NCBI GenBank assembly: GCA_965248925.1 | Contig: CBDFLE010000006.1 | Coordinates: 5,154,601-5,218,600 of the forward strand | Direction: 5' to 3' | Origin: Candidatus Multivoradales bacterium | GTDB taxonomy: Bacteria > Acidobacteriota > Thermoanaerobaculia > Multivoradales > J023 | DNA length: 64,000 bases | In this document: one piece after another, positions 3,001-62,884 of the stretch | Position numbering within the stretch: the stretch's first letter is position 1 | Layout of the letters: each line of letters starts with the position of its first letter | Program-made: the position numbers and the translations under genes | Notes under the pieces: generated by a model | Told to the model about the DNA's origin: nothing | The model's input: the letters and a program-made list of their open reading frames with translations, nothing else | The model's database searches: none

Positions 3001-6000
3001 GCCGGGGGTGGATACCTGCCACTAGATTCGGCTTACCCAACTAGCCGCTTGCGGGCGACCCTGCAGGACTCACGGGCAACCCTATTGCTGGTTGATGACG
3101 AAGCGACCGCCAAGCGTCTCGAAGGTACGGTTCAGTGGCTGCTGGTCAGCACCGTGGTCGCCGACCCTGACCGCTGGTTGGCGATGGATCTTGATCCCGA
3201 TCAGTTGGCCTATTCGATCTACACCTCGGGCTCTACCGGGCGACCCAAGGGAATTGGTATTACTCATGGCAGCGCTGCCCAACTGGTGGCTTGGGCCAGT
3301 GCTGAGTTCAGTGCCGCGGAACTCGAGGCGGTGCTGGCCTCGACCTCGGTGTGCTTCGATCTGTCAGTTTTCGAGATTTTCGTGCCGTTGTCGGTGGGGG
3401 GTCGGGTAGTGATGGTCAGTGACGCCCTCGAACTCGCTGAAGGTGGGGCCGGGGCCACGGTGACGTTGATCAACTCGGTGCCCTCGGCGATCAGCGAACT
3501 CAATCGACTGGAGGCCATACCGCCGACGGTGCGGACCCTCAACTTGGCAGGTGAGCCGCTGCGCGGTGAGCTCCTGCGGAGCTTGTATGAAGGCAGCTCG
3601 GTCGAGCGGGTGCTCAATCTCTACGGGCCGTCCGAGGACACCACCTATTCGACTTGGGCACAGCCGCTGCGCGCCAGCAGCGAGGAACCGCCGATCGGTC
3701 GACCGATCAGTGGCAGCAGTGTTTTCCTGCTCGACCCCCTTGGCCAGCTGGTGCCGATAGGCGTCGTCGGCGAGCTGCTGCTCGCCGGTGCGGGGTTAGC
3801 CCGCGGCTACCTTGGACGCCCAGCGTTGACCGCCGAACGCTTCGTGCCCGACGGCGTGAGCGGCCGATCGTCGGCCAGGATGTATCGCAGTGGAGACCTG
3901 GCTCGCTGGCGGGTCAACGGTGAACTCGAATTCCTCGGTCGACTCGATCACCAGGTCAAAGTGCGTGGCTTCCGCATTGAGTTGGGTGAGATCGAGGTAG
4001 CGCTGAGCGAAGTTGGCGGTGTCGACAGTATGGTCGTGGTGGCGGAGGGCAGCGCTGAGGCACGCCGCCTGGTGGCCTACGTCACCGGGCGGCTCGAAGT
4101 TGAGGAGCTGCGCCGTCAGCTCTCCCGACGATTGCCGGCCTACATGGTGCCAGAGGTCTTTGTGGTCCTCGAAGCACTGCCTTTGAACGTTAATGGTAAG
4201 ATAGATCGCGACTGTTTGCCGTCGCCGGCGGCCGAGTTGGTGGCGCGCGGTATGGTCTCGCGGTTACCGGAGAGTCCCACCGAGTTGCGGCTGGCGGCGA
4301 TTTGGCAAGAGGTTCTTGAGCTTGGAGAAGTCGGTGCCGAGGAGAGCTTCTTCACTCTCGGTGGGCATTCTTTATTGGCTACCCGGGTGATCTCGAGAGT
4401 GCGCACCGAGTTCGCTGCCGAATTGCCGCTGCGATCACTGTTCGAGACTCCGACGATCGCCGGTTTGGCCCGCCAAGTCGATCTGGCGCGGCAGCCCACC
4501 ACGTTGCCGGCGCTACGGCCGCTACTTCGCGGTGGCCCCTTGCCACTGTCTTTTGCCCAGCAGCGGCTGTGGTTCATCGATCAGCTCGAGCCGGGCAACT
4601 TGGTGTTCAACATTCCCATCGTGCTGCATGCCGAAGGGCCGCTGGAAGTGGCAGCGCTAGCGGCCTGCTTCACCGAAGTGGTGCGCCGGCACGAGGTTCT
4701 GCGTACTACCTTTGCCACCGAGGACGGGGAGCCGGTGCAAGTGGTGGCACGGCCTCGACCGGTGTCCTTGCCGCTGATCGATCTCTGTGCGCTGCGCGCC
4801 GCTGATCGCCAGCAGCAGACTGACCGAGCTACCGACCTCTGCGAGCGCCGGCCGTTCAATCTCGCCACGGGTCCTCTGGTGCGTTGTGCGCTAATCCGCA
4901 TGGAGCAGGGTCAACACCAGTTGCAGGTGACCCTGCACCATATCGTCAGCGATGCCTGGACTCTGGAGGTGCTGTACCAGGAAGTCGCCGCGCTCTACCA
5001 TGCCTTCAGTCAGCGGCAGCCTTCGCCACTGGCTGAGCTGCCGCTACAGTACGCCGATTATGCCGGCTGGCAGCGGCAGTGGTTGCGGGGCGAAGCGCTA
5101 GAGCAGCGCCTCGATTTCTGGCGTCACACCCTGGCTGGTGCTCCGCCTCTTTTGGAGCTGCCCTACGATCGGCCGCGGCCGGCGATGCAGAGCCACCGCG
5201 GTGGTTACCACCGCTTCACACTGAGTCAGCAAGTGGCGGCCACCGTGGGGAAGCTCGGGCAGAGCTTGACCGCCACTCCTTTCATCATCTTGCTGGCGCT
5301 GTTCAAGGGGCTCTTGGCTCGTTATTCGGGCGCCATCGACCTAGTGGTCGGAACCCCGGTAGCGGGGCGCGATCATCTCGAACTCGAGCGGCTGATCGGT
5401 TGCTTCATCAACACCCTGGTGCTGCGCACGGACCTGTCCGGCGATCCGAGTTCGCGACAGTTGGTGCAGCGGGTGCGCGAGGTTTTCTTGGCCGCTGACG
5501 CCCATCAGCAAGTGCCCTTTGAAAAGTTGGTCGAGGAGCTCGGCGTCGAGCGCAGCCTGACGCACTCACCGCTGTTCCAGGTGATGTTCCTGCAGCCGCG
5601 ATCGGCACTCGTTTCAAGCTCCCCGAACGAGGCTGAGACAAGGCCTGACGCCAGCCGTGAGGAGCTTTCCTGGAGGGTGGTGGAACGAGCCGGTGAGACT
5701 TCGCAATTCGACCTTACTCTGTCAGTGCAAGAGGACGCGGCCGGCGGCTTGGTGGGAACGCTGGAGTATTGCCTCGACCTCTTCGAACCGTCGACTATGG
5801 AGCGGCTAGCGCGGCACTACTCGAACTGGGTCGCGGGAGCTCTTGCTGACCCTGAGCTGACGCTGTCACAGCTCAGCATGCTGTCGCCCGTGGAGCGCTA
5901 CCAGCTGCGTTTTGAGCGCGCCTTGGGCGGCAGCACCGGCAGCGTGCCGTGGTCGACAGTACAGCAGGGGATCTGGCAGCAGGCGCGGTGCGCTCCACAG

Positions 6001-15000: not shown

Positions 15001-16611
15001 CGGGCCGAGACCGAAGGCTTGATTGGGTTTTTCGTCAATATCCTGCCGCTGCGCCTCGACCTTTCGGGGGGGCTTAGTTTTCGCCAGCTGTTGACCCGCG
15101 TGCGGCTGGAAACACTGTCGGCGCTGACTCATCAAGACTTGCCTTTCGACCAGCTGGTGATGGCGCTCAGCCCGGAGCGCAGTCTGGCTCCTTCGCCGCT
15201 ATTCGACGTTCTATTCGTCAATCAGACCGAGGGCCGGACGCCGGTCGCTGAGAGTTCCGAAGGCGCCGGCGAGGCCGCTGAACCACCGTCGCTGACCTTT
15301 GAGCCGATGGTGCCAGAGTTTGCGGTGTCGCGCTTTGAGCTGGCGCTCTTCGTCGGCGAGGATGGCGGCACTATCGCTGGTGCTTGGGACTTCCAGCTGG
15401 ATCTGTTCGACCCGTCGACCATCGCTACCTTGAGCTCTCGATTCGAAACCTTGATTGCCTCGATCGTCGCCTTACCGGACGCGCCGATCGATGCTCTCGA
15501 ATATCACACCGCAGCAGAACGATTGGAGCAGGACATGCAACGACAGCAACGCCAAGCAAAGAGTTTCAGCAAGTTCAAGAAGATCAAACCCAAGGCGGTG
15601 AGCCTGACCAGCGATGCCGAGCTGGTGGCCACCAGTTACCTGAGCGAGGACAGCCGGCTGCCGGTGGTCTTCCAGCCCACCCAACCTGATGTTGACTTGG
15701 TGGAGTGGGCGGCTGCCCACCGGCAGCAAATCGAAGACCGGGTAAGGCGCCATGGCGCGGCTCTGTTCCGTGGCTTCGGTGGCCCCTCGGTGGAGCGCTT
15801 TGAGCGCTTCGCGGTGGCGGTCTGCCCCGATCTCTATGGCGACTATGGCGACCTACCGAAGGAAGAATCGGGCGACAATATCTACCATTCGACTCCCTAC
15901 CCGAAGGATAAGATGATCTTGTTCCACAACGAGAGTTCGCATCTGGAGCGCTGGCCGATACGCCAGTTCTTCTCCTGCGTCGTCGCCTCTACCAGCGGTG
16001 GTGAGACCCCGATCGTCGATTGCCGGCAGCTCTATCGCCACCTCGACCCGGTGCTGCGCCAGCGCTTCGAGGAGCAGGGTCTACGCTATGTTCGCAACTT
16101 CACTCCCGGGCTCGATGTCAGCTGGCAGGATTTCCTCAAGACCGAAGATCGGCAGCAAGCCGAGCACCAGATGGCGGCGCGGGGCCTGGGCTTCGAATGG
16201 AAAGAGGGGGGCGGGCTCCGCATCTGGAAGCGGGCACCAGCGATCGTCCAGCATCCGGACACCGGCACAGCACTGTTCTTCAACCAGATCCAGCTCCACC
16301 ATGTGGCCTATTTGGACGAAGAGGTGCGCTCTAGCCTGCTAGCTCTGTATGCGGTGGAAGATCTGCCGCGCAATGTCTATTTTGGTGATGGTTCGCCGAT
16401 CGAAGACGAGGTAGCGCAGGCCATTCTCGAGCTCTATTGGCGGCACTCGGTGAGTTTCCGCTGGCAAGAGGGCGACATCGTGATGCTCGACAACATGCTC
16501 ATCGCGCATGCTCGCAATCCTTTCGAGGGTGAGCGCAAGATCATCGTTGCGATGGGGCGGATGTTCGCCCAGGAAGACCTCACCAGCACCGCAGTTGGTG
16601 AGCGGAGCTAG
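1..16611 (+). CDS. Multimodular NRPS, 5'-truncated by the window edge: A-T-C-A-T-C-A-T-C-A-T-C-A-T-C-TauD/SyrP-like Fe(II)/2OG beta-hydroxylase
   Basis: Frame is open from base 1. It has five A domains (YTSGSTG, YRxGDL, KxRGxRIE), five GGHSLLA T domains and five HHIxxDxW C domains with SFxQxRLW starts (LCL-like). The C-terminal domain has FHNESSH...MLDNMLIAHARNPF. Hand-read specificity codes: A1 DALVMGVTY (unclear, hydrophobic), A2 DLFNNALTY (Ala), A3 DAEDIGTIV (Lys/Arg-like), A4 DAEIAGLIS (unusual), A5 DLTKVGEVG (Asn). Confidence 0.96.
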   Translation: MIDALPVEGLCLLIYTSGSTGQPKASGTTHRGVVSLVRGGSHYAELLPTDTMLQQAPVSFDASVLEIWGMLLNGGRVGIGSADQLDLDEVATALIAQRVTVQVLTSGLFRLLAEERLDSLAGLRDLMTGGEAASVPHMRKVLRAYPRLRLSNVYGPSENSTYSAVQMTRPWHLGAASMPIGTPVSNRTVLVLDGFLRLVASGVPGRLYVGGHGLARGYWRRPGMTASVFVPHPYSRQRGERLYDTGDLARLLADGSLDFLGRQDHQVKIRGFRIEPGEVAVALMELPEVGDAVVVVSQGDTEKHLVAYVVPTAPVADLERCLHAALATKLPTYMLPSAIVELASLPLSPNGKLDREALPAPRSRNLASPLVRLPESAAEKLLAEIWQEVLVVDGLGVDENFFELGGHSLLATRVISRLRRSLNIELPLSALFEEPTIGGLARLLERDTQNALGASRRIERRAAGQEQAPSFGQRRLWFIDQLKPGNPVYNIANALRLEGQVDSAVLVYSIERLVERHQVLRTVFHEIDGQPVLEVRPPGTLTLPEIDLSGLPTASQWPVVRELAAGEASAPFDLGSDSVLRVTLLRLAADDQVLLLVVHHIAADGWSMDLMIHEISAHYSAAAAGQQAPLPELPIQYADFAAWQQELLSSAVGEQQLQFWHRTLDQAPALLELPLDRPRPAVQRHRGARYDFQVPAALSAALRDLGQQLGATPFMILLTAFKVLLARHSGQSDISIGTPIAGRRMSEAENLIGLFANTLVLRNTLQPANSFSSLVAAIRATTLDAYENQDLPFERLVEELKPERSLAFSPLFQVFFVWLDAAVGGQPAAVEALRWSSVETGHTTSMFDLALTMHERQGAFVGEFVFDTDLFEASTVQRLAERFRVLLDSAVARPGMLIAELSLLPGAEVEQLLLQLAPGAPPVGTRPRFLHQFFGCQAALTPAAVAVVHGDRHWTYAELDQRATEIAAGLQARGVGPEVLVAVCVERGAELVAALLGVLKAGGGYLPLDSAYPTSRLRATLQDSRATLLLVDDEATAKRLEGTVQWLLVSTVVADPDRWLAMDLDPDQLAYSIYTSGSTGRPKGIGITHGSAAQLVAWASAEFSAAELEAVLASTSVCFDLSVFEIFVPLSVGGRVVMVSDALELAEGGAGATVTLINSVPSAISELNRLEAIPPTVRTLNLAGEPLRGELLRSLYEGSSVERVLNLYGPSEDTTYSTWAQPLRASSEEPPIGRPISGSSVFLLDPLGQLVPIGVVGELLLAGAGLARGYLGRPALTAERFVPDGVSGRSSARMYRSGDLARWRVNGELEFLGRLDHQVKVRGFRIELGEIEVALSEVGGVDSMVVVAEGSAEARRLVAYVTGRLEVEELRRQLSRRLPAYMVPEVFVVLEALPLNVNGKIDRDCLPSPAAELVARGMVSRLPESPTELRLAAIWQEVLELGEVGAEESFFTLGGHSLLATRVISRVRTEFAAELPLRSLFETPTIAGLARQVDLARQPTTLPALRPLLRGGPLPLSFAQQRLWFIDQLEPGNLVFNIPIVLHAEGPLEVAALAACFTEVVRRHEVLRTTFATEDGEPVQVVARPRPVSLPLIDLCALRAADRQQQTDRATDLCERRPFNLATGPLVRCALIRMEQGQHQLQVTLHHIVSDAWTLEVLYQEVAALYHAFSQRQPSPLAELPLQYADYAGWQRQWLRGEALEQRLDFWRHTLAGAPPLLELPYDRPRPAMQSHRGGYHRFTLSQQVAATVGKLGQSLTATPFIILLALFKGLLARYSGAIDLVVGTPVAGRDHLELERLIGCFINTLVLRTDLSGDPSSRQLVQRVREVFLAADAHQQVPFEKLVEELGVERSLTHSPLFQVMFLQPRSALVSSSPNEAETRPDASREELSWRVVERAGETSQFDLTLSVQEDAAGGLVGTLEYCLDLFEPSTMERLARHYSNWVAGALADPELTLSQLSMLSPVERYQLRFERALGGSTGSVPWSTVQQGIWQQARCAPQRLALVADDVQLSYAELVGAAARLGERLRLLGVGPEVAVALSVERSPEMVVAVLAVLAAGGFYVPLDPALPTARCEWIVDQARPRVLLTRAALRQRFAVGEAEVLLLDDVLSAPAAAGDATVAELPLPAAGESAVYAIFTSGSTGRPKGVLVSHQSLANYTAVASQVFVVSAEDRVLQLASLSFDASAEEIFPALTRGATLVLRDEAMMGSARAFFAACRRQRVTVLDLPTALWHELMQAMEEEDLTLPGTLRLVILGGEAAQSEPWAIWRRRVGSRVRLVNTYGPTESTIVATHWQLGRRAWLASDGEMPMGRPVAGCATYLAGRRLQLVPPGVDGELLIGGRGVARCYLGQPALTAERFVPNPFSDRPGDRLYRSGDLARWRSDGALRFIGRLDQQIKIRGFRVELGEIENVLAAHPQVREAALRMFEDPRGARLVAYVVGTAKATDLRQFLAARLPDYMVPAQFVDLERLPLNTMGKLDRQALPQPRPVDGVGSGYSAPRGAIEQGLAEIWQDVLGVEQVGRSDDFFALGGHSLLATRVIARLRRLLGVEPPLRLLFEAPVLAQQAASLGEFGGRAQAPPIEPQSRDQPLVVSFAQQRLWLIDQLDPGSAAYNMPIAMRVEGELDIAALGWALSEMMRRHEVLRSRFVGVKGVARQRVDPPPPPFLPLIDLSGLTGADRRCSTLGRVAEEAATPFDLARGPLLRALVLRLAEQQHAILITVHHIVSDGWSMELMSREMIALYGAGSNGRPSPLAELPIQYGDFAIWQRRWLAGEVMDAELAYWRRQLAGAPPVLELPLDRPRPALQSSAGAHFGCRLDADTGSAVRRLARELGATPFMVMLAAYGGLLARHSNQLDLCIGTPVAGRGRLELEPLIGFFVNTLVLRADCSGDPSGALLVERTKEAVLAADQHQNVPFDKLVEELAVERSLSTSPLFQVMFALQNAALEAPRPALPGNEPNRWEALELPGQSAQFDLTLTVFDGDDMAVDIEYRSSLFDPTTIERMAGHYRNLVRALLVAPQRSWSLLTMLSAAERCQLMVELQGPEGASDEGSLVHQRFQAQARRCPEAVAVVHAGGELTYAELAQASAELATCLCQQGVGPEVAVALVVERGPEMIVAVLGIAEAGGFYVPIDPSLPAERQAFMLDEVRPSVLVTQSHLRPDLPPHGATIVLLDPPTAEQERRVAGRVIGRLDPENPAYTIYTSGSTGRPKGVVIRHGALAEYIETTVEKYGLRPGDRVLQFSSVSFDASVEEIYSPLVCGATLVLRDEDMLSSVAAFLDRCERWRLTVLILTTAYWHELAVALDREDLELPPLVRLLAIGGEAALAEAWSSWSRRVDPRVRLINLWGTTETTISTTQWQVRGLPSHGTSEMPIGRPLRNYRTYLCGRYLEPVPLGVSGEALIGGSGLARGFFGRPRLTAQRFIPDPFACLSGSRLYRTGDLARWTPDGVLEFAGRIDLQVKVRGFRVELGEIESVLMSHPAVREAAVTLRDEVAGDQRLVAYLTGAAATAEELRAHLADRLPAYMVPVAFVALEQLPQTALGKVDRRALPAPARKDLTAGLFVPPCGAMETAIASIWQEVLAVERVGRDDNFFALGGHSLLAARVISRLRQALGVEPPLRAIFESPTLADLAVSLEQLSADAGERIGRQQPGASQPLSYAQRRLWLIDQLEPGSAAYNIPTALRIEGQFEITVLSRGLTEVVRRHQVLRTRFESLGGIPQQVIEAAMAVALPLVELSALRPAERAAEEARWLAAEADQPFDLGRAPLLRGLVLRLAPECHAVALSVHHIASDGWSMELLTQEVSELYRAFAAGRPSPLEELQIQYADFAAWQRQQQSAEDLEAELSYWQERLAAAPPPLELPFDRPRPAIQSGRGAHSDRALAAPISRAVRRLAEAGEATLFIALLSGFQAFLGRLTGQLDFTVGTPVAGRDRLETEPLIGFFVNTLVLRADLTQQPNWEELLRRTRQRTLEALDHQTLPFEKLVEVLDPQRSLAYAPLFQVMFQLNSTAVAKPEVLDEVAAEAADGPRWSLLGAASSSTKFDLTLAVSELDEGLHLTLEYSTDLFEKTTIDRLLRGYEILLEGLAMEPELPFWQLPLLSPSERRQLLEEWSGAAAAVPEVEPLSVLFAARVQQFPQRLAVIDEYGSLSYRQLDQRAEQLAAYLRQLGAGAEVRVGLLSERSLDMVVALLAIAKTGSAYVPLDPAHPPARLVFVLADAAATIVVGEDGLLEGLELPPSVRHLVGFDSAKSALAGRSTVAVPAPYELESTAYVIYTSGSTGQPKGTMISQRSLSNYLLWAVAAYGAEQGGGSLVASSLAFDLTITSLLVPLISGTGVRLISAAAGALGLGEKLLEAADLSLLKLTPSQAQLIARQRSGAELEGRARCLVLGGEALSAEHFATWPSATRVVNEYGPTEATVGCILFETRPTVAEGAVPIGRPVAGARAHLLDRHASLVAPGVAGELYLGGPGLARGYVGRPALTAERFVPDPFTERPGERLYRSGDLARYLAAGELDFLGRCDQQIKLRGYRIEPGEIEALLAARPGVEEAFVMLEQNGERLLAYVAAGGEPPKAEELRQQLASRLPEYMVPSVIVVLPALPLTVNGKIDRRALPPPVAAPDADAALPAGQLEQLLAKIFAAVLGLDEVGREESFFALGGHSLLATQVVSRIRAAMAVELPLRELFEQPTVAGLAARVELAMADNLGLTAPPLVPAARDQPLPLSFTQRRLWFIDQLDTGSAAYNLPHVLRLRGELDVSALAWAFSTLVRRHEILRTSFGTEDEQPVQRVSPAAEWRLPRVDLGSLEVADGEHQARRLARQEGQRPFDLSRGPLLRTVLLDLAEEQHLLLVTMHHIASDAWSMQILSGEVGQLYQAAAARQPDSLPPLPIQYADYAVWQRQWLAGEVLEQMLETWTGKLRGAPRRLDLPFDRPRPEVPSLRGGSQPFVLPAALAGELRGLGAAADCTLFMTLLACLYALLYRLTGQPDLVVGTDLANRNRAETEGLIGFFVNILPLRLDLSGGLSFRQLLTRVRLETLSALTHQDLPFDQLVMALSPERSLAPSPLFDVLFVNQTEGRTPVAESSEGAGEAAEPPSLTFEPMVPEFAVSRFELALFVGEDGGTIAGAWDFQLDLFDPSTIATLSSRFETLIASIVALPDAPIDALEYHTAAERLEQDMQRQQRQAKSFSKFKKIKPKAVSLTSDAELVATSYLSEDSRLPVVFQPTQPDVDLVEWAAAHRQQIEDRVRRHGAALFRGFGGPSVERFERFAVAVCPDLYGDYGDLPKEESGDNIYHSTPYPKDKMILFHNESSHLERWPIRQFFSCVVASTSGGETPIVDCRQLYRHLDPVLRQRFEEQGLRYVRNFTPGLDVSWQDFLKTEDRQQAEHQMAARGLGFEWKEGGGLRIWKRAPAIVQHPDTGTALFFNQIQLHHVAYLDEEVRSSLLALYAVEDLPRNVYFGDGSPIEDEVAQAILELYWRHSVSFRWQEGDIVMLDNMLIAHARNPFEGERKIIVAMGRMFAQEDLTSTAVGERS

Positions 16612-16618
16612 CGCGATT

Positions 16619-21188
<4,570 letters not shown>

Positions 21189-21196
<8 letters not shown>

Positions 21197-24100
21197 TCTA
21201 CCGGTAGAAGGTTTCAGGGCTTCGCCGCAGCAGCGCCGGTTGTGGCCGGCGATGCGTCACGGCGCCGAATTGAGGGTCCAAGGGGCGCTGACCATCCGTG
21301 GCCAGCTCGAACTCGAAGTGCTGCGCCGGGCGCTGGCGACGCGGGTCGAAAAGCACGAGATCTTGCGCACCACGTTCTTCCTACCGCCTGGCCTGCGCAC
21401 ACCGTTGCAGGTGGTGGGTGAAGACGCGGCCTACGAATTGTGCCAGCTGGCCGCCGAAGAGTCGTTGTCGCAATTGCTCGCGGCAGAGCGCTCGCGGCCC
21501 TTCCACCTGCGCTCGGGGCCCCTGTTGCGGGTTGCTTGGGTCAGCCATTCCCCGGCTCATAGCTGGCTGGTGCTGACCCTGCCGGCGCTGTGTGCGGATC
21601 GCCGCAGCCTTGACAATTTGCTCGTTGAATTGGCCGCGGAGCTGAGTGGCACTAGTCCGGTGCTTGCCGCCGCCGCCGATCAGGCCGACAACGAGACACT
21701 GCAATATGCCGATTTCGCTGCTTGGCTGGAACAGCTCGTAGACGATCCGGACGACGATGCAGTGCCTTTGGCAGCAGCTTTCTGGCAGCCTCTGATCGAT
21801 CATGAAGCCGCCGCGGCTCACTTGCCTGGGCAGGGGAATGCGGCCGCAGCTGGAACCTTCGTGCCACAGCGCCTCACTCTCGAAATGCAACCGGCGCTCG
21901 GCCAGGCCCTGGACGAGTGGCGGGGGAGCACAGCCGGGCAACAGGCGGTGGGTGATTGGGTGCTCGTCGCCTGGCACACTTTGCTGTGGCGGTTAACCGG
22001 CACGTCGGTCCGGGTTGGCGAAGTGGTCCTGGGCCGAACCGACGCTGAACTCGACGCCATGATCGGACCGCTTGAATGTTGTTTGCCGCTGGCTTGCTGT
22101 CCAGCAGACACACTCAGCGGTAGCGAGTTCGTCGATCTGTGCCGCGAGGCCCGGCGCCAGACCGATGAGTGGCAGGACTATGCTGATCTGGATCGGCTGC
22201 AGGAATGCCAGTTTTCGTTCGAAGAAACCGCGGCTCCGGTCGCCTTGGCCAGCAGCCGAGGACTGAGTTGCGAGTGGTTGGCCAGCTGGTCTTGCGGAGG
22301 GTTATTCACCGCGCGGTTGGTCTGTGAGACGGCCGAGAACCAGCTGCAGGCCCTGCGGCTGTTCTACGATCCGCGGCAGCTGGACGAGGGCCAGGCAACC
22401 GTCTTGGGCGCGCGTCTGCAGCGGTTGCTCGCCGCTCTCTTGCGCTCCCCAGAGCGCCGGTTGACGGAACTCGAGTTGCTCGGTGTCCCCGAGCAGCGGC
22501 GGCTGATGGTGGATTTCCAAGGTGCTCCAGTGAGCGCGCGTCTCTTACCGCTCGACCGACGTCTGGAAGCGCTGGCGGCTGAACGACCGATGGCTCCAGC
22601 GCTGATCTGTGGCGCCCAGCGCTTGACCTATGGCGAGCTGTTCGGGCGGGTCGAAACGCTGAGCGAACGCTTGAGACAGCAAGGTGTCGGCCCGGAGGAC
22701 CGGGTGGCGATCCATGCCGAGCGCTCGGCCGATCTGGTGGTGGCGATCTTCGCCATTTTCCGTGCCGGTGCCGCCTATGTGGTGCTCGAGCCGGGCTCTC
22801 CCGCGGATCGGCTGGCCGCTGCTGTGGCCGACAGCCGGCCCCGGGTGCTGCTCACCGAGAGCGCTCAGCCGGTGCTTGGCGAGTCTTTCGAGGGAGCGGT
22901 GCTGCTGCTCGACGATGCTGCGTCGGATCCGTCGCCTGCTGCCGGTCCACCGCCGGTGAATGCCGGCTCGGCGCTGGAGCAACTGGCCTACGTGCTGTTC
23001 ACCTCGGGCTCGACCGGGCGGCCAAAAGGGGTGGCGATCGAACATCGGGCACTGGCCAGCTATGTCGCGGCGGTCATCTCGCGGCTCGAGTTGCAGGACG
23101 GCTGGCGCTACGCCATGGTGTCGACTTTCGCCGCCGACCTCGGTCACACCATGCTCTATCCGGCGCTGGCCAGTGGTGGATGTCTGCATGTGATCAGCGC
23201 TGAGATGGCTGCCAGCCCGGACACTCTGGCCGACTACATGGAAGCGCAGGAGATCGACTGTCTGAAGATCGTGCCCTCCCATCTCAAGGCCCTGCTGTCG
23301 ATGTCACGGCCGGGTCGAGTGTTGCCGCGGCGCCGGCTGGTGCTGGGGGGTGAAGCGTTGAGCCGCGAGTTACCAGAGCGGCTTGACGAACTAGCGGCGC
23401 GCTGCCGGGTGTTCAATCACTATGGCCCTACCGAGACCACTGTGGGGGTGCTCGCCGGAGCCGCTTCAGTGCGGCTCGAGGGCGCCGCTACGGTACCTCT
23501 GGGACGGCCGCTCGACGGTGCCCGGGCCATCCTCCTGGACCGTTGGGGAGGGGCGGTAGCCGAAGGCGTAGTCGGTGAGATTCACCTTGGCGGCAGCAGC
23601 CTGGCGCGCTGCTATTGGTGCCGCCCAGCCTGGACTGCGGAGCGTTTTGTGCCAGATCGCTGGAGCGGCGCCAGCGGTGAGCGCTTGTATCGCACCGGCG
23701 ATCTGGCCAAGCAAGTGCGCGACACCAGCGACGGCCTAGTGATGGCATTCGTCGGCCGCACGGATTCACAAGTCAAGCTGCGTGGTTTCCGCATCGAGCT
23801 GGGCGAGGTCGAGGCGGCGTTGCGTCAGCTGAACGAGGTGCGCGATGCGGTGGCGGTGATCCGCCGTGATGTGGATACCGAAGTTCGTCTGGTGGCCTAC
23901 GTGGTGTTTCGCCAGCGACGTCTGCAGCTGATCGATGGTTGGCGCCAAACCCTGGCGGCGAGCTTGCCGGACTACATGGTGCCGGTGGCAATGGTAGCGC
24001 TCGATGCCTTGCCATTGACCGCCAATGGCAAAGTCGACCGCGCCGCCCTACCGGCGCCCGAGCGCATCCGCTCGCTGGCGGAGAACTATGTGGTTCCCCA

Positions 24101-25796
24101 GGGAGAGGCTGAGTGCTTGCTGGCCGAGGTGTGGGAAGAGGTTCTTGGTATGGAACGGATTGGTAGCGAGGACAACTTTTTCGAACTCGGTGGTGACTCG
24201 ATCTTGGCCATTCAGGTGATCGCCCGCGCCAGCCGTGCCGGCCTGACTGTCGATCCCAGGCAAATCTTCCAGTATCAGACCATAGCCGAACTCGCTTTAG
24301 TGGCGGTGGAAGGAGCCGGACCGGTGGTGGCCGAGCAGGGTTTGGTAGCGGGGATGGCACCGCTAACACCGATCCAGCAGTGGTTTTTCGCTCAGGGTTT
24401 CGAACAGCCGCAGCATTGGAATCAGAGCTTGATGTTCGACAGCCCCAAGCCCCTCGAAGTAGGAGTGCTAGGGGCCGCGATAAGCGGGTTGATGGATCAT
24501 CACGACGCGCTCCGCTCACGTTTCCAGATCAGCGAGGAGCGCCAGCAGCAGATCTTTGAGCGCTCAGCACCCGAACAGGGGAGAGTGACTCATCTCGACC
24601 TCTCGCGGCTGCGGGCCGAGGAGGGTAGTGGCCAGATTTCCTCGCTGGCGGCCCAAGCCCAGGCCGCCCTCGATCTGCGGTGCGGACCGGTGTTGCGCGC
24701 CATCTACTTCGAGATCGGCGGCGAGGTTGGCCACCGGCTGTTGTTGGTGATACACCATCTGGTGATCGATGGCGTTTCTTGGCGGGTCTTGTTCGAGGAT
24801 CTGGCGGCGCTCTACGGTCAGCTGGCCAGTGGCCAGGCGCCGAGCCTGCCGGCCAAGACGACCTCCTACAAGAGCTGGGCCGAGAAGTCCGTTGCCCACG
24901 TCGCCGCCGGTGCCCTCGACCAAGAGCTGGAGTTCTGGCGGGCGGCGCGGCCCCTAGGCTCAGCAGGGCTGCCTCTCGATTTTCCGTCCGGCGACAACAG
25001 CCTGATGTCTGCTGATGGGGTGGTCGTAGAACTCGACGCCGATCTCACTCGCTCCCTGTTGCAGGAGGTACCGGCAGCATACGGCACCGAGATCAACGAT
25101 CTGCTGCTGAGCGCCCTCCTACTCACCTTGAGCGGCGGCGCTGGCGACCGCGAACTCTTGCTCGAGATGGAAGGGCATGGCCGTGAGATGGTCTTCGCCG
25201 ATGTCGATCTGTCGCGAACCGTCGGTTGGTTCACCACCCACTACCCAGTGCTGCTGCGCGGGCCCGTTGGCGCAGATCTGGGTGCCACGTTAATCGCGGT
25301 CAAGGAGAACTTGCGCCAGCTGCCGGCCCGCGGAATCGGCTACGGCATGCTGCGCTACCTGCGCCCGGCTGACGCCGTTGGCGAAGGGCTGGGTGCCCAG
25401 CCGGAGCCGACGCTGAGTTTCAACTACCTGGGACAGCTGGATTCGGCGGTCGATCAAGCCGCCGGATTTTTGCAGCCGGCCGCTGAGGACACCGGACCCT
25501 CGTCGTATGTCGGCAGCCATCGGTACCGCCAGCTAGAGATCAGCGTCATGGTCATCGGTGGCAAATTGCGCAGCAACTGGATCTTCAGCAAGGAACTGCA
25601 CCGGCGGGCCACCATCGAAGGCTGGGCCGGTGATTTCCTCAACCACTTGAAGGTGCTGATCGAGCATTGTCTGTCGCCCGCGGTGGGTGCGCACACACCT
25701 TCGGATTTTCCTCTGGCCGGACTCGACCAAGACAGTCTGGAGCAGATCTCGAAGTTGCTTGGCGAGAATGACGATCTTTGGGAGGAAGCCGGTTGA
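21189..25796 (+). CDS. NRPS: interface (I) domain-A(Asp)-T-E (epimerisation)
   Basis: LPALCAD pseudo-C, A code DLTKVGHVG and T GGDSI. E-domain motifs are PLTPIQQWF, HHLVIDGVSWRVL, EGHGRE, RTVGWFTT and FNYLGQ, followed by a C-terminal TPSDFPLA COM-like motif. ATG 21189 overlaps the upstream gene end. Confidence 0.93.
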
Positions 25797-28700
25797 AGAA
25801 TCGCAATCTGGAAGATATCTACCCGCTTTCACCTCTACAGGAGAGCTTGCTCTACCACCTCTTGGCGCTTCCCGGCTCGGCGGTGGGTTTCGAGCAGAAG
25901 AGCACCATCCTGCGGGGGGAGCTAGACCTGGATGCTTTTGCGGAGGCCTGGCGGCAGGTAGTGCGGCGCCATCCAACCCTGCGCACGGTGTTTGTCTGGG
26001 AAGGGTTGGCGCGGCCGATGCAGGTAGTGTGCAAGCGGGTAGAACTCGCCCTTGAACGGCACGATTGGTCGGCGTCTTCGACCGACCGCCAGGTTACCGA
26101 CCTAGAGGCATTTTTGGACGCCGATCAGCGCCGCGGTTTCGATTTGAGGCGGGCGCCTTTGATGCGTCTGGCGTTGATCGATCTCGGCGAGCAAACCTGG
26201 CGCTTGGTGTGGAGCTACCACCACCTACTGATCGACGCTTGGTGCCGTTCACTGGTGCTGGACGAAGTCGCGGCGCTCTACAGCGGACTGCGCGTTGGCC
26301 AGCAGCCGACTTTACCGCCGCGGCGTCCGTTTCGCGACTATATGGCGTGGCTGGCGCGGCAAGACGAAGCGGCGGCGGCGGCTTTCTGGCGTCGTAGCCT
26401 GGCCGCGGTAGGGGAGCCTACCCGCCTACGCCTCGAAGGTGTCGACCCGGCGGTCGATCGAGAGGTTGGGTACCAAGGCCGTGACCGCTACCTGGCGAGC
26501 GAGTGTAGCGCTGTAGTAGGGGCTGGGGCCAAGCGCTTGGGAATCACCCTCGGCAGTCTGGTGCAGGGAGCTTGGGCGATCTTGCTGGGTCGCTACAGTG
26601 GACTCTCAAAAGTGATTTTCGGTGCGACGGTTTCTGGTAGACCACCGGATTTGCCAGGTGTCGAGAACCTAGTCGGCATGTTGATCAACAATCTGCCGGT
26701 GGCGTTGCAGATCGACGATGCGCAGCCGGTTGGCGGCTGGCTATCGGAGCTACAGCGCCAGGTCGCCGAGTTGCGCACCTATCAGCATTGCTCGCCAGCG
26801 CAGATTCTTGAATGGAGCGGTCGCCCAGCTGGTCAACGCTTGTTCGACACCTTGCTGCTGTTTCAGAACGCTCCCCAGGACAGCTTGGGTGAGCCCGCCG
26901 ATGACGACTCGGCTGCGGGGTCGGCGGCGGCCGAACTTGAGATCAGCGACTACCGCAGCCGGCTGGAAACCGGCTACCCTTTGACATTGGTGGTGGTGCC
27001 CGGCGAGCGCATGCTGCTGCGAGCCTTCTTCGACGCCAGCCGTTACTCCGCTACCGCGATGGAGCGCTTGCTCGGTCACCTGGAGAATCTGTTGGTCGGC
27101 TTGATCGGCGATCCGAAACGGCCGCTCGGCGAGCTCGAGATGCTTTGGCCAGAGGAGCAGCAGTGGCTGTTGCAGGACTGTGAAAGCGGCCTGGGAGATT
27201 TCGGGCGCCTTGACCGAGCCTACCTACTAGACGACCTGCGACGGCCGGTGGCGGCTGGGTTGCCCGGCGATCTCTGGCTCGCCGGCAGTGGTGTTGTGCC
27301 GGTGCCTGAGGGCACCGCGGTGGCGCCCGATCCGTTCCGCGAATCGCCCACCGCTCAGATGTGGCAGAGCGGCTATTCCGCGCGCCGCTTGGCCGCAGGT
27401 GAGCTCGAGACGCTGGGGCCCAGCCAACGACGGGTCGAAGTCGCCGGCCAACGGATCCGAGTAGGGGAGATAGAGGCCGCTCTGCGGCGCGATCCGGAAG
27501 TTGGGGAAGTTCTCGTCAAGCGTTGGCGCACGGCTCGTGGTGTCGACTATTGGCTGGCTTACGTGGAGCCTGCGCCAGCGGCCGGATTGGATGTTCCGCG
27601 CTTGCGCCAGACTGCCGAGCGCCTGCTGCCGCGTCACCTCTTGCCAGCGTTCTTCGTCGAGTTGACGCCGCTGCCTCGGGACTCAGCGGGCAGACTCGAT
27701 GAGGACCGGCTGCCGGCTCCCGAGAGCCTCACCGATCGCTTGCACGCTGGTTTTGTGCCGCCGGAAACACCGCTGCAGCTTCGCTTGGTGCGGATTTGGG
27801 AAGAGACCTTCGGGCTCACCCCGATCGGAATTCGGGATGACTTCTTTGCCCTCGGCGGGCATTCGGCGCTGGCGGTGCTGTTAATGACCCGGATTCGCGC
27901 GGAGTTTGGCGACCTGCTACCGCTCAACGCATTGCTCGAGGCTGGCACAGTGGAGAGGCTGGCCGGGGTGATCGGCCGGCCCGCCGAAGATCGAGAACCC
28001 AGTAGCTTGGTTGCCATCCAGGCGGCTGGCTCGCGAACGCCGCTGTTCGTGGTCCATCCCGGCGGTGGTGGGGTGCTGTGCTACACCGACCTGGCCTACT
28101 GCCTGGGCGCCGACCAGCCGGTGCTTGGCCTACAGGCTCCGGGCTGGGCCGATTCCCGTGCCCCGTTCACCACTGTCGAGGAACTCGCCGAACTCTACGT
28201 CGAGCTAATTCACCACCGGCTGCCGGACGGGCCGTACCGGTTGGCGGGCTGGTCGTTCGGCGGACTAGTGGCGTATGAAGTAGCGCTGCGATTGGCGGAT
28301 GCCGGGCAGCCCCCAGATCTGCTGGCGGTACTCGATGCCGGGCGGCGAGATGAAGTCGAGGTGCTGAGCGAAAGCGAAATCTTGATGCGTTTCCTCGAGT
28401 CTGTTCCGCGGCTCGCCGAGCAACTGAGCGCGAGCGAACTGGCGGCGATTGGTGACCTCGATGCACAGATCGCCCATGCGTTAGCCATTGCCAGGCAAAA
28501 CGGAGTGTTACCGCCGCACTTCGACGTCGAGGAGGCGCGGCGCCTATTTACGGTCCGGCGGGCCTGCATCCGGGCCGCCGAGGTCTACTTACCGGGAAAC
28601 CTTGATGGCTCGATAGAGTTGTTTGTCTCGCGCGAGTTTCGCGATGGTTTCGGCGATCCGGAACTCGGCTGGCGGTCCTGGGTGGAGGGAGAGATCGTTG

Positions 28701-28870
28701 TCCATGAGCTGGATTCGAGCCATGCGGAAATGGTCCAGCGACCTTGGATCGAAGGGTTGGCGAAAATCCTGGGGAGCAGACTTCGTGACCTTGAACAGCA
28801 AACTGGAGGCCGCGTGGATCAGCAACTGATTGTGGCTGGAAGTAGCAAAAAGCGAGGAGTAAGAGATTGA
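25793..28870 (+). CDS. Terminal NRPS: C(DCL-like)-vestigial A fragment-T-thioesterase
   Basis: C domain has EDIYPLSPLQ and WSYHHLLIDAW. Only about 190 aa of degenerate A C-terminal motifs remain. T is GGHSALA; TE has HPGGG, GWSFGG and a His. TTG start overlaps the upstream TGA, with a GGAGGA RBS. Confidence 0.9.
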   Translation: MKNRNLEDIYPLSPLQESLLYHLLALPGSAVGFEQKSTILRGELDLDAFAEAWRQVVRRHPTLRTVFVWEGLARPMQVVCKRVELALERHDWSASSTDRQVTDLEAFLDADQRRGFDLRRAPLMRLALIDLGEQTWRLVWSYHHLLIDAWCRSLVLDEVAALYSGLRVGQQPTLPPRRPFRDYMAWLARQDEAAAAAFWRRSLAAVGEPTRLRLEGVDPAVDREVGYQGRDRYLASECSAVVGAGAKRLGITLGSLVQGAWAILLGRYSGLSKVIFGATVSGRPPDLPGVENLVGMLINNLPVALQIDDAQPVGGWLSELQRQVAELRTYQHCSPAQILEWSGRPAGQRLFDTLLLFQNAPQDSLGEPADDDSAAGSAAAELEISDYRSRLETGYPLTLVVVPGERMLLRAFFDASRYSATAMERLLGHLENLLVGLIGDPKRPLGELEMLWPEEQQWLLQDCESGLGDFGRLDRAYLLDDLRRPVAAGLPGDLWLAGSGVVPVPEGTAVAPDPFRESPTAQMWQSGYSARRLAAGELETLGPSQRRVEVAGQRIRVGEIEAALRRDPEVGEVLVKRWRTARGVDYWLAYVEPAPAAGLDVPRLRQTAERLLPRHLLPAFFVELTPLPRDSAGRLDEDRLPAPESLTDRLHAGFVPPETPLQLRLVRIWEETFGLTPIGIRDDFFALGGHSALAVLLMTRIRAEFGDLLPLNALLEAGTVERLAGVIGRPAEDREPSSLVAIQAAGSRTPLFVVHPGGGGVLCYTDLAYCLGADQPVLGLQAPGWADSRAPFTTVEELAELYVELIHHRLPDGPYRLAGWSFGGLVAYEVALRLADAGQPPDLLAVLDAGRRDEVEVLSESEILMRFLESVPRLAEQLSASELAAIGDLDAQIAHALAIARQNGVLPPHFDVEEARRLFTVRRACIRAAEVYLPGNLDGSIELFVSREFRDGFGDPELGWRSWVEGEIVVHELDSSHAEMVQRPWIEGLAKILGSRLRDLEQQTGGRVDQQLIVAGSSKKRGVRD

Positions 28871-44857: not shown

Positions 44858-44925
44858 GTACTTCCCACTAACAAACCATCGTTCCGTGAGGCAATACGGC
44901 GCACAGGTCTAATTGTCGCTGGGCA

Positions 44926-46730
44926 TCGACCTGTTGGCCGTCGCGCAGCAGCTCGACGAAAGCACTAGTGGGCTGATACTCGGCCGGCGCGATCTGGTAG
45001 CTCACCGCTACCGGCTCAGCTGCGAGGCCGTCGTCGTCGAGGGGCACGATAGGCGGCTCGAAGCTGGTGATCTGAGCTTGCACCCCCCACAGACTGCCGA
45101 TTTCTTGGTCGATGTTGGCGATCAGTCCGAGGGCAATGTCGAGCAGGCCGACGGCGAGGTAGTCCTCGGGGGTTTCGAGCACAGTGACTTCGCCATTGAA
45201 GTCGTCGAGGTAGGGACTCTTGGGCAGCACCGGTAGCAACACCCGAGCAGTGTGCAAGGCTGGGTCGAGGCCGGCTTGCAGCCGGCTCTCGAGGCGGCCG
45301 AGGAGGTTGTCGATCTGTGGCGGCGTGGTGGTGCCGGCGGGCAGCAGTTCAACCGCCAGCGGGTGAGTGTTGTCTTGGTAGAAATAGGCGGGTCGCCACT
45401 CGCCTCGTAGCTCGTTGCAGACCAGGAAGAACAGCGGTCCCCCCGGGCTGGGGTCGGCGATCCCTATCCCCTGGCACTCGGGCACCCATTCGAGGGCCTC
45501 GACTCCGACCGGTGGGTCGTAGACCTGGCCGGCTCGCACTGCCGAGCTGGGCTGGCCGGCGGCGTCGGCGAAGAACCCGAAAGTGCGCACGAAGCGCTGT
45601 GCCAGCGGCCCGCAGTGGTCGTGGTTGAGGCCCGTGTTGTTGATGAAGGAAATGCTGTACTCGTAAGACAGCGGTGGCAAGGCGGCTGAACTGACGGTTG
45701 CCGGGTAGCTGGTAATGGCGCTGGGGCCGGCGATGAAACCGGCCGAGACCTGACCCGAGGAGGTCGTTCTCAGGGTCAAATCGGAGCTGCCGCAATCGCC
45801 GAAACGGGGCGTAGTGACCGGGCAGCCGGTGAAGCCACCGGTGATCGAGTCGATTGAGGCGTCGAAGAAGGCACCTGGGGTGGGGTCCGGCGGAGCGTTG
45901 GTGCAGGTGATGCCAGGGGCGACGAAGACGGTGTTGGTGAAAGCCACGTCTTGATTGGCCACTGGGTTGCCGTGCGGATCCTCGACGGCGATCGCCAGGG
46001 TGTCTTGCCACAGGCCGTGCAGCACGGTGAGGTCGGTGCCCTGGTTGTCGTCGCGGTTGGTGCGGCGCAGAGCCGCCGGATCCTGGGGGAAGGCGACCGA
46101 GGAAATCGGCTGGCGCAGCACCAGATTGCCGAGTCTGGAGCTGGCCACCGCCTCGACCACGTTCTCCAGCACTCGGGTTTGGAAGATGTCGCTGTCGAAG
46201 CGACGAAGGAAGAGGGGGTTAGCCGCGGTGTGCTTTCCTGAACGTAACTTGACGCGGGCCATTCCACGGGCGTCGGTGCGTAGGGTGAGGCTGGTGGATT
46301 CTTGGTTCTGGGTGTCGAGCAGCCGGCCGTCGCCAGCCCAGATGTAGAAGGTGACTTCGGTGCCCTGGACCGGTCGGCCGGCCGCGTCGAGCACGCGCAC
46401 CGCCAGAGGGTGACGATAGACCCTGTCGACGGTGCCGAGCTGGCTGTCAGTACCCTCGGCGACGAGTAGCTCGACGCCAGCGAGAGGATCGGTGTTGGGG
46501 GAGTCTGACATGGGCGCGGCCAGGGCATCGGCGAGGAAGCCCAGCAGCCAGTTCTCAGGCGCCTCGACGGTGGCGCCACCGGCCAGGCCGCCGGAGAGGA
46601 AGTAGCCGGCCGTGCCGCTCTCTGGATCTTCGGCTCGCCATGTCGAGCCGGTCCAGGCACTGACGGAGATCGGCTGGCGGGGGATCTCGACCGTCAGCCC
46701 TTGGGCGATGAGGGCGACCACGTCGTCACG
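44926..46730 (-). repeat. Near-identical copy of an internal segment (54359-56163) of the giant Rhs gene; non-functional fragment
   Basis: Constant offset of 9433 with only a handful of substitutions. Bounded by an IS21-type end and a truncated XRE gene. Confidence 0.95.
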
Positions 46731-46734
46731 GCCA

Positions 46735-46925
46735 GGGTGTATCGGGTGACTAACTGATGGAAGGGGCCAACGAAGATGCGGCAAGAGCCTACTTCGAAGA
46801 CCGCGAGATACTACGCCAATTTCAGGAAGTCGAAGGGCTGCCCGAGAAGGACAAGTTCGTTGTCAAGAAGCTCCTCGACGCATTTCTTACCAAGAAGCAG
46901 ATTCAGAGGCTGGCTGTTAGGAAGC
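46735..46925 (+). pseudogene. 5'-truncated XRE-family regulator (copy 1)
   Basis: Only MEGANED...KKLLDAFLTKKQIQRL remains; the HTH is lost at the junction with the Rhs fragment. Confidence 0.8.
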
Positions 46926-60507: not shown

Positions 60508-61275
60508 TCAGGATTTCCTCCGTAAGTTGTTGTTGTTCTTGACGGCCACCTGGGCGCGGTAACTCTTGCCTGAAAGCTCCAGGATGGTGGCGTGATGGAC
60601 GAGTCGATCGATGGCGCATGCAGTGGTCATGGGGTCCTTGAAGGTCTTGTCCCACTCGGAGAAAACCAGGTTCGAGGTGATCATCACGCTCTTGCGCTCG
60701 TAGCGCTCGGAGAGGAAAGTGAAGAGCACCTCCATCTCTTCGCGGCTATGTTGGACGTAGCCGATATCGTAGAGGATGACGACCTCGAAGCGATCGAGTC
60801 GCTTGAGTACGATCTCTAGCTCGAGATCGCGTTTGGCGACCAGCAAGCGCTGGACGAGCTTGAAGGCCGGCAGGAAGAGCACGGAGACGCCTCGCTGGAC
60901 GAGTTCATATCCAATGGCGCTGACCAGGTGCGTCTTGCCACGACCGGGCAGACCGAAGGCGAGCAGGTTCTCGCACCGCTCTGCGAAACCGCCCTCGCTC
61001 AGGTTGGGCAGTTGCCGGCGAACCGCGACCGGCAGTCGGGCGCGATCGAGAGTCGCTAGGGTTTTCTCGTGCGGCAGACCGGAGCTGCGAAGCAGCCGTT
61101 CGACGCGGCGCCGACGGCGGTCTTCGATCTCCACTTCGGCGAGCTGACGGAGAAAGCGTTCGAAGCTCCAGCCTTCTTGCTCGGCCTTGGTACTCACCTC
61201 TGCGAGAGCGCTCACGAAGCTGGGCAACTTCAAGGTGCGAAGCAAGCCGGGGAGACTGTCGTTGGTGACGCTCAC
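60508..61275 (-). CDS. istB: IS21 helper ATPase
   Basis: GLPGRGKTHL, ERYERKSVMITSNL.FSEW, AIDRLVHHA, GKSYR. Walker B reads LYDIGY. Confidence 0.93.
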   Translation of the reverse strand: MSVTNDSLPGLLRTLKLPSFVSALAEVSTKAEQEGWSFERFLRQLAEVEIEDRRRRRVERLLRSSGLPHEKTLATLDRARLPVAVRRQLPNLSEGGFAERCENLLAFGLPGRGKTHLVSAIGYELVQRGVSVLFLPAFKLVQRLLVAKRDLELEIVLKRLDRFEVVILYDIGYVQHSREEMEVLFTFLSERYERKSVMITSNLVFSEWDKTFKDPMTTACAIDRLVHHATILELSGKSYRAQVAVKNNNNLRRKS

Positions 61276-62756: not shown

Positions 62757-62788
62757 GCCCGCTCCTCGGTCGAGTAAACGAGCATTTT

Positions 62789-62828
62789 CCCGCCTCTTGG
62801 GGGTCGCTAGCGACCCCCAAGAGGCGGG
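62789..62828. repeat. Perfect 40-bp palindrome between the IS21 end and the istA start
   Basis: CCCGCCTCTTGGGGGTCGCT|AGCGACCCCCAAGAGGCGGG. Confidence 0.9.
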
Positions 62829-62884
62829 ACTCGGATGCACAGGAGTAATTGTCGTCAGTGCACAGGTCTAATTGTCGCTGAGCA

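Follow-up and report, generated by a model that had tools for sequence, protein, structure and literature searches.

Interface domains with and without an adjacent hydroxylase at subunit junctions of a nonribosomal peptide synthetase line from a Candidatus Multivoradales bacterium

Junctions between NRPS1, NRPS2 and NRPS3

We analysed a stretch of 64,000 nucleotides from the genome of a Candidatus Multivoradales bacterium (assembly GCA_965248925.1, contig CBDFLE010000006.1, positions 5,154,601 to 5,218,600; G000:C6:5154601-5218600 in our numbering), referred to below as the window. It holds three successive nonribosomal peptide synthetase (NRPS) subunits, NRPS1, NRPS2 and NRPS3, the last two of which open with a degenerate condensation domain, or pseudo-C. 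NRPS1 is 5'-open in the window and forms a 7268-aa frame in the genome, with six modules followed by a condensation (C) domain and a TauD-family domain. Its last catalytic C domain (C7, HHIASDAWS, PF00668; 14167..15522, + strand, as are all junction features given here) is the donor half of the NRPS1-NRPS2 junction. A linker at 15523..15678 (…SFSKFKKIKPKAVSLT…), with a basic K/R-P-K-x-V motif, joins this domain to a fused Fe(II)/2-oxoglutarate hydroxylase of the TauD family at the C-terminus (15679..16551), which PF02668 matches with 157 bits against a cut-off of 27. NRPS2 and NRPS3 read as pseudoC-A-T-C and pseudoC-A-T-E (Pfam, phmmer), where A, T and E are adenylation, thiolation and epimerization domains. 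The NRPS2 pseudo-C, an interface (I) domain on the evidence given below, lies at 16619..17944 and is followed by A at 17966..19429, T at 19493..19693 and a terminal catalytic C (HHIAGDGWS) at 19718..21121, with a basic tail running to the stop at 21196. In NRPS3, an I domain with no adjacent hydroxylase (21189..22544) precedes A (22566..24041), T (24105..24305) and E (HHLVIDGVS, EGHGRE; 24327..25793, from phmmer and motif alignment).

Both pseudo-Cs carry the motif LPALCAD, which in translation stands in the contexts LFLPALCADAGS at 17021-17041 and LTLPALCADRRS at 21579-21599. When all 23 condensation-like domains of the line are aligned, it falls at the position of the catalytic HHxxxDG. PF00668 matches two stretches in each protein, and a catalytic-C seed matches NRPS2 residues 49-449 and NRPS3 residues 28-355 (phmmer). 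The likely start of NRPS2 is the ATG at 16619, 8 nt past the TAG of NRPS1, and the I domains of NRPS2 and NRPS3 begin at most about 10 residues from their start codons. At the other end of NRPS2, the C domain finishes about 24 codons before the stop at 21194-21196, which the likely ATG of NRPS3 at 21189 overlaps, so there is no space for a hidden hydroxylase between the two subunits. A sequence-only reading of the window had described NRPS1 as ending in C-TauD, NRPS2 and NRPS3 as each opening with an LPALCAD pseudo-C and an Asp-type A domain, and NRPS2 as ending in C without a hydroxylase. All of this was borne out, and only its start for NRPS2 (16508) had to be moved to 16619.

The A domains of NRPS2 and NRPS3 share the Asp-type code DLTKVGHVGK. 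Code positions followed the Stachelhaus scheme, and the residue names Asn, Gln, Glu, Ser, His, Thr and Ala attached to codes in this work are presumptive assignments. The procedure was calibrated on the enzymes of cyanochelin B, where it gave DLTKIGHVGK for the A domains of CcsI and CcsL, described as Asp-specific, and codes resembling those for Gly and Phe at the positions that these residues hold in the peptide (PMC12628792). The two A domains are 60.7% identical and the two I domains 32%. The two T domains, at 71.6% identity, are the most similar of the 171 T-T pairs in the assembly line (median 45.5%).

The assembly line comprises nine genes over about 72 kb and starts 43 kb upstream of the window, which thus covers its tail only. 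It contains 18 complete A-T modules plus a terminal C-A(fragment)-T-thioesterase (TE) protein (Pfam, phmmer). Four of its subunits lie upstream of the window: N_A, with a fatty-acyl-AMP-ligase-like domain, a carrier and C-A-T-C-A-T; N_B, with five modules and a terminal C domain; N_C, which is A-T-C; and N_D (G000:C6:5142992-5149423, or L010:5099-11527), which is pseudoC-A-T-C-A-T. The pseudo-C that opens N_D has LPALCCD at the motif position, and the A domain after it has the Gln-like code DAWQYGLIDK; the last A domain of NRPS1 has an Asn-like code. The two I domains of the sequence-only reading are both real, and the total for the line is three. Each of the three opens a subunit after one that ends in a catalytic C domain, and a TauD stands at one of these three junctions: a β-hydroxylase lies directly before the I domain of NRPS2, whereas the proteins upstream of NRPS3 and N_D end in a catalytic C domain and a short tail.

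To place the pseudo-Cs among condensation-like domains, we searched with all three and retrieved 78 loci, mostly from Acidobacteriota, cyanobacteria and Sorangium. A first tree held 248 domains: 223 near-complete ones from these loci, the 23 of the line itself and two I-like ones encoded in the C5 cluster, another giant NRPS cluster of the same genome (G000:C5:2187874-2295791). All 44 domains in which an xPxLCxD-type motif replaces HHxxxDG formed one clade with support 1.0 and no catalytic C domain inside it; LPALCAD is thus not a chance match. The cyanochelin B cluster was located by tblastn of plasmid records, the match being the N-terminus of CcsL. A second tree added CcsI (LPALCAD), CcsL (LPSLCAD) and seven other Ccs C-like domains, giving 257 in all. 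Its I clade has 46 members, including CcsI and CcsL, again with no catalytic C inside (support 0.999; all tree supports here are FastTree local supports). On homology, motif loss, position and phylogeny together, we assign the pseudo-Cs of NRPS2, NRPS3 and N_D as genuine I domains, and the C-domain phylogeny that the sequence-only reading had called for places both of its candidates in the interface clade.

Deep nodes within the I clade were unstable: the NRPS2 and NRPS3 I domains were sisters at 0.73 in one tree and not in another. The N_D I domain clusters at 0.888 with two hydroxylase-less I domains of Gln type, each encoded in another genome, and its closest relative, in genome G029, precedes the same DAWQYGLID code. 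Judged by eye, the I domains showed no clean co-phylogenetic pattern with the TauD clade of their partners, and the NRPS3 I domain could not be assigned to a hydroxylase type. NCBIfam held no I-specific model, matching these domains with generic NRPS models only. A sequence search of PDB found no I-domain structure, its best matches being ordinary C domains such as those of Txo1/Txo2 and PvdL; PDB also lists an entry under the title "Special condensation domain in NRPS" (8z0q). With an I profile, the known I domains of this genome scored 338-432 bits and the best ordinary C domain 299 bits. A predicted complex of the NRPS3 I domain with the NRPS1 linker-TauD scored 0.07, against a mark of 0.32, and we counted it neither way.

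TauD hydroxylases of the genome

The genome holds five TauD-family genes of this type: the NRPS1 domain, a detached gene on the contig of the window, and three free-standing genes at the C5 cluster. The iron ligands H-x-E…H (H127, E129, H321) are invariant across 27 aligned sequences. We built a tree of 46 TauDs of this type. The sister of the NRPS1 domain (0.827) is the fused TauD of G033, a genome from the same order (97% complete, 5 contigs), and both lie within a clade (0.997) that includes the fused TauD of CcsFGH. All members of this clade with a readable partner code precede an Asp-type module, and the NRPS1 domain is the only TauD of the genome inside it. By its place in the tree, the NRPS1 TauD is a fused hydroxylase of the Asp-partnered type, the identity that had been proposed for it.

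The detached TauD gene (G000:C6:5098992-5100041, or L007:5993-7042) is free-standing and lies on the same strand as N_A, 11.5 kb upstream. Nine genes separate it from N_A, among them genes for a radical SAM protein, a class-V aminotransferase, CobW, a ferredoxin, a DUF116-polyprenyl synthetase, a prenyltransferase and a squalene-hopene-cyclase-like protein. It has the invariant iron ligands and the N-terminal basic strand motif found in C-TauD linkers, and its closest relatives (55-60% identity) mostly lie in NRPS clusters with I domains. A comparison of its flanks with those of five of these relatives found only the TauD open reading frame (ORF) in common within ±1.5 kb. Its sister in the tree (0.908) is a detached TauD of G029, around which no NRPS domain occurs within -19 to +15 kb. 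In the clade that holds both (0.92), Gln-type modules follow all three members that have an adjacent partner, so the detached TauD fits N_D better than NRPS3. A search for a stand-alone hydroxylase beyond the window, suggested from the sequence, thus turned up a gene, and one that does not simply explain NRPS3.

In the C5 cluster, a Gln-clade TauD gene lies directly before the I-Gln module. The I-Glu module there is hydroxylase-less, and two tandem TauD genes about 3 kb past the last NRPS gene group with TauDs that precede I-Glu modules in G029. As judged by matching clades, every TauD of the genome pairs with an I module of the same substrate, and only the I module of NRPS3 is left over. Tandem arrangements also occur in genome G012, where two TauD domains share one 697-aa frame upstream of an I module (G012:C300:45841-47931, in L115), and where two more TauD genes follow the TE at the end of the cluster.

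Interface domains without a hydroxylase

Interface domains that lack a hydroxylase are frequent among the loci retrieved. In the first sample, a TauD precedes 31 of the 46 I domains: 28 immediately, one beyond a gap, plus both Ccs references. Another 10 come after a C-ending protein without TauD and 2 after a T domain, and 3 lie at contig ends. Adding the I domains of G033, G029 and G012 gave 38 partnered and 16 hydroxylase-less domains, with 5 more of unknown context; that is, 16 of the 54 with a known upstream context come after a C-ending protein without TauD. The A domains after these 16 vary in code: four are Asp-type, one has a truncated DLTKVG (Asp or Asn), two are Asn-type, four Gln-type, one Glu-like, two Ser-like (DVWHISLVDK, in L034 and G029:C132), one reads DFWHLGQIDK and one is unread. 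Contig C132 of G029 alone has three hydroxylase-less I domains, of Gln, Ser and Asn types, and no TauD. In G033 the order is C-TauD / I-Asp-T-C / I-Asp-T-E-C / TauD / I-Gln-T-C / I-Gln-T-C-TauD / I-Asn, and that genome has five I domains but only three TauD genes of this type that we found. Each of the genomes behind L042 and L062 (completeness not given) has a single PF02668 match and, within one cluster, a pair of I-Asp modules. Because assemblies were fragmented and some I domains were missed (two of the five in G033), I:TauD ratios per genome are unreliable, and we used such ratios for the G029, G033, L042 and L062 genomes only.

Hydroxylase-less I domains are conserved much as partnered ones are. 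Of the alignment columns, 51 reach 80% conservation or more among the 38 partnered domains, and in the 16 hydroxylase-less domains these columns are 87.5% conserved. The NRPS3 I domain matches 46 of these 51 columns (partnered range 43-51, median 46.5), and the I domains of Ser modules match 45 each. No column convincingly separated the 38 from the 16, the largest difference being 0.41. In many loci, and in the I modules of the C5 cluster, the A domain after an I domain is split by an insertion before the last A-domain motif. The insertion measures about 0.6-1.2 kb in L022 (e.g. L022:11384-14119), L024, L027, L031 and L037, and hints at a tailoring domain embedded there.

The C domains on the other side of these junctions also resemble one another. 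Fifteen of the 18 members of a terminal-C clade (support 0.945) precede a TauD or a subunit that starts with an I domain; the clade includes C7 of NRPS1, the C domain of NRPS2, the terminal C domain of N_B, 12 domains followed by a TauD and 2 others followed by a hydroxylase-less I domain. The K/R-P-K-x-V motif recurs in the C-TauD linkers of related loci and in the C-terminal tails before hydroxylase-less I domains, and the tails after such terminal C domains keep the linker motif and then stop. Such tails would be expected if a TauD had been removed or relocated at the linker, and equally if the linker itself had a docking role.

We favour a reading in which an I domain provides the acceptor half of a C / I-A-T junction, the NRPS3 copy docks the terminal C domain of NRPS2, and the hydroxylase is optional; from the comparisons above, we give this an even chance of being correct. 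Junctions of the form …T-C(-TauD) / I-A-T… would let the last catalytic C domain of one protein act in trans on the carrier of the next, with a TauD hydroxylase as an optional passenger. At the first junction in the window, the NRPS1 TauD would β-hydroxylate Asp on the T domain of NRPS2, and both its clade and the analogy with CcsFGH/CcsI predict L-threo (3S-type) β-hydroxyaspartate (β-OH-Asp) as the product (PMC12628792, PMC7100376). At the second, the NRPS3 I domain would mainly dock the terminal C domain of NRPS2, and the Asp of NRPS3, with no dedicated hydroxylase, would enter as D-Asp after the E domain. The detached TauD would most likely serve the Gln-like module of N_D in trans. The sequence-only reading had proposed either a shared hydroxylase or docking alone for the second I domain. 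These were the right two options, and the comparative data favour docking as what I domains do in general, given how frequent the hydroxylase-less ones are and that some sit even on Ser-type modules, whose substrates would argue against hydroxylation. The dispensability in vitro of the myxoglucamide I domain for both hydroxylation and condensation, for which its authors ask about other roles (PMC13638107), likewise fits a role other than hydroxylase recruitment.

Several points weigh against this reading. The loci were retrieved with these I domains as queries, and related genomes were chosen after the matches had been seen, so the frequencies above are no unbiased census. Within the line itself, N_B ends in C and N_C starts with A, a C / A split with no I domain, so an I domain is not required for such splits. 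In L014:6879-13066, from an Actinomycetes metagenome-assembled genome, two I-A(Asp)-T units follow each other without an intervening catalytic C domain, and the second I domain comes directly after a T-ending protein. The hydroxylase-less I domains of L042 and L062 are each sister to the partnered one of the same cluster; I-A-T units are inherited together, and hydroxylase-less copies could therefore be recent duplicates instead of functional adaptors. The first part of the G033 layout is that of NRPS1-NRPS3 and recurs with the sister TauD, no further TauD of this type having been found in G033. Both this recurrence and the close similarity of the NRPS2 and NRPS3 T domains fit a shared hydroxylase equally well. 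Finally, the I domain of glidomide is reported as indispensable for its stand-alone hydroxylase (PMC13638107), which makes hydroxylase binding a real I-domain function in at least one system.

Some of the same observations bear on a less probable reading, which we regard as possible, if doubtful: that one hydroxylase serves two modules. The fused NRPS1 TauD would act on the T domains of both NRPS2 and NRPS3, two consecutive I modules on two other subunits, with the I domain as a portable landing pad. The genome offers no other Asp-clade TauD, the two A domains share one code, and their T domains are the most alike in the line. The T domains of the one-TauD pair in L062 are similarly close (72.9% identical), compared with 43-46% in pairs with one TauD per module (L043, L018 and L027). 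We keep this rival because the same layout recurs in G033; were the hydroxylase shared, the layout would be a conserved one, and the same logic would apply to Gln pairs such as the TauD / I-Gln-T-C / I-Gln of that genome. The single TauDs of L042 and L062, each with two I-Asp modules to serve, point the same way. However, these are free-standing, unlike the NRPS1 TauD, which is tethered covalently to its subunit and would have to reach beyond the whole of NRPS2. Tandem duplication of a module also yields same-substrate pairs, as the sister I domains of L062 and L042 illustrate, and I domains on Ser-type modules and in a TauD-free cluster also speak against sharing. A shared hydroxylase would give L-threo-β-OH-Asp and then, after the NRPS3 E domain inverts Cα, D-erythro-β-OH-Asp, which to our knowledge is hardly known from such peptides. 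This would be unlike the L-threo/D-threo pair described for known siderophores (PMC12628792).

It is unlikely that the detached TauD instead acts in trans on the Asp of NRPS3, giving D-threo-β-OH-Asp after epimerisation as CcsK does on CcsL. The cyanochelin B layout equals this one except for the free-standing hydroxylase gene before its I-A-T-E subunit (PMC12628792), and the detached TauD would suit such a part in having the N-terminal strand motif of I-partnered hydroxylases, the iron ligands and close relatives mostly in clusters with I domains. However, it groups with Gln-partnered TauDs and not with CcsK or the Asp clade, the hydroxylase-less I domain of N_D on its Gln-like module is a better fit, and nine genes, radical SAM, polyprenyl synthetase and cyclase-like ones among them, lie between it and the first NRPS gene. 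Equally improbable is that the NRPS3 I domain is a decaying, functionless remnant of TauD loss or module duplication: the tails of NRPS2 and N_C do resemble truncated C-TauD linkers, and the sister pairs of L062 and L042 would suit such an origin, but the domain is full length in an open frame, stands at the partnered median for conserved columns and is too far from the NRPS2 I domain in identity to be a recent copy, and the grouping of the N_D I domain with foreign hydroxylase-less ones argues for long persistence.

Returning to the junction-adaptor reading, we note that I domains are here decoupled from a hydroxylase at two of the three junctions of one line. Full-text literature searches found no account of hydroxylase-less I domains or of one fused hydroxylase for two I modules; Reitz 2019, Chen 2022 and supplements were outside their scope, so an earlier mention is possible.

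Gene neighbourhood and known systems

Downstream of NRPS3, NRPS4 (25778..28870, + strand) is the chain-release subunit, with a C domain (HHLLIDAWC), an A fragment (about the last 170 residues), T and TE. Its A domain lacks the core, including motifs A1-A5, so the NRPS4 carrier must be loaded in trans or remain empty. Similar ends, either C-(degenerate A)-T-TE or E-C-T-TE, occur in G012 and L050. The genes that follow encode ABC and MacB/FtsX transporters and kinase-like, aminotransferase, methyltransferase-like and peptidase S9 proteins (Pfam). No TonB-receptor or siderophore-uptake family was found in a Pfam scan that began 18 kb before the first NRPS gene, ran to about 62840 in the window and did not take in every short ORF. 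The siderophore setting in which the domains had been viewed does not hold: with a fatty-acyl-ligase-like start, 18 modules, exporters downstream and uptake genes not seen, we read the cluster as a large lipopeptide line and not a siderophore line. Such hydroxylases can occur in non-siderophore lipopeptides (PMC12971057). We found no close orthologue of the cluster in 40 related genomes, where the best match to the NRPS3 I domain was 39% identical.

Other features of the line and the window were seen in passing. Between N_B and N_C in gene order lies an aminomutase-type lyase gene (PF00221, aromatic-amino-acid lyase/aminomutase); with N_C, it stands upstream of N_D, and it hints at a β-amino acid as one of the building blocks. 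Two divergent C domains, HHAILDGWS (N_B ~3267-3740, L009) and NHAILDGWS (NRPS1 ~1132-1593, L011), each directly follow a Thr-type module as the sole C-like domain between T and A. By resemblance, they may be of the modified-amino-acid (dehydrating) type. Further along the window, 47899-58530 (- strand) encodes a 3543-aa protein that combines RHS repeats and DUF6531 with a transglutaminase-like core and a Big_1 domain. GC skew is strong in this stretch (up to 0.30), a gene of the Tpt1/KptA family and another Big_1 protein adjoin the large protein, and 44868-46784 (- strand) was noted together with it. An IS21-type pair at 60508-62840 (- strand) consists of an IstB-like ATPase and a transposase with rve and Mu-transposase C-terminal domains.

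Accounts of what the I domain does differ: it is reported as essential for a hydroxylase in one study and was found dispensable in a 2026 study (PMC13638107). Natural hydroxylase-less I domains, conserved like partnered ones and found on Asp, Gln, Asn, Glu and Ser modules, offer a direct handle on this role. If they are junction adaptors, they would be a new NRPS docking element, useful for engineering split modules, and the mining rule that an I domain means a β-hydroxy residue would over-predict hydroxylation; antiSMASH 8 detects both interface domains and siderophore β-hydroxylases (PMC12230676). If instead the hydroxylase is shared, one enzyme would set two stereocentres at two positions, and structure prediction would have to allow for it.

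The closest known layout is that of cyanochelin B (Leptolyngbya sp. NIES-3755 plasmid 2, AP017310.1), which runs …C-TauD / I-A(Asp)-T / …C / … / I-A(Asp)-T-E / C…. Its I domains, CcsI and CcsL, share the clade and the motif type of NRPS2 and NRPS3, its fused CcsFGH TauD shares the Asp clade with that of NRPS1, and the A codes differ from DLTKVGHVGK in a single position (DLTKIGHVGK). It differs in the free-standing CcsK gene directly before the I-A-T-E subunit, where NRPS3 has none, and in being a short PKS/NRPS (polyketide synthase/NRPS) siderophore line, whereas the modules described here form the end of a large lipopeptide line, near which we saw no uptake genes. Potashchelin offers a further parallel: PtcB, FAAL-ACP-C-TauD-C-A(Asp)-PCP, also has a TauD after C, followed by a C-like domain and an Asp-type A domain, and its second Asp is served by a separate, stand-alone hydroxylase, PtcA (PMC7100376). 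As described there, the module for this second Asp carries an ordinary LCL domain rather than an I domain. Both systems use one hydroxylase, an enzyme of its own, for each β-OH-Asp (PMC7100376, PMC12628792). Fused TauD domains have been called rare and tied to Asp in siderophores (PMC8949500).

Two further parallels come from PMC13638107. In myxoglucamide, MxgA (…C-Ox) carries a C-terminal α-ketoglutarate dioxygenase after its catalytic C domain and the next subunit, MxgB (I-A(Glu)-T), starts with I; this is a single junction with its own oxygenase and Glu as substrate, where no hydroxylase-less I domain came to notice, and we liken it to ours by description. Glidomide, in which the stand-alone TauD-type hydroxylase GlmF is partnered with an I domain and acts on a carrier-bound residue, is a model for the detached TauD and N_D, from which it differs in having His as the substrate and an I domain reported as indispensable. 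The glycopeptide X domain is like the I domain in being a degenerate C domain kept as a platform for protein-protein interaction (PMC8949500). It belongs to another C-subtype, however, and recruits P450s at the last module, where it follows T, instead of standing at the N-terminus of a subunit before A.

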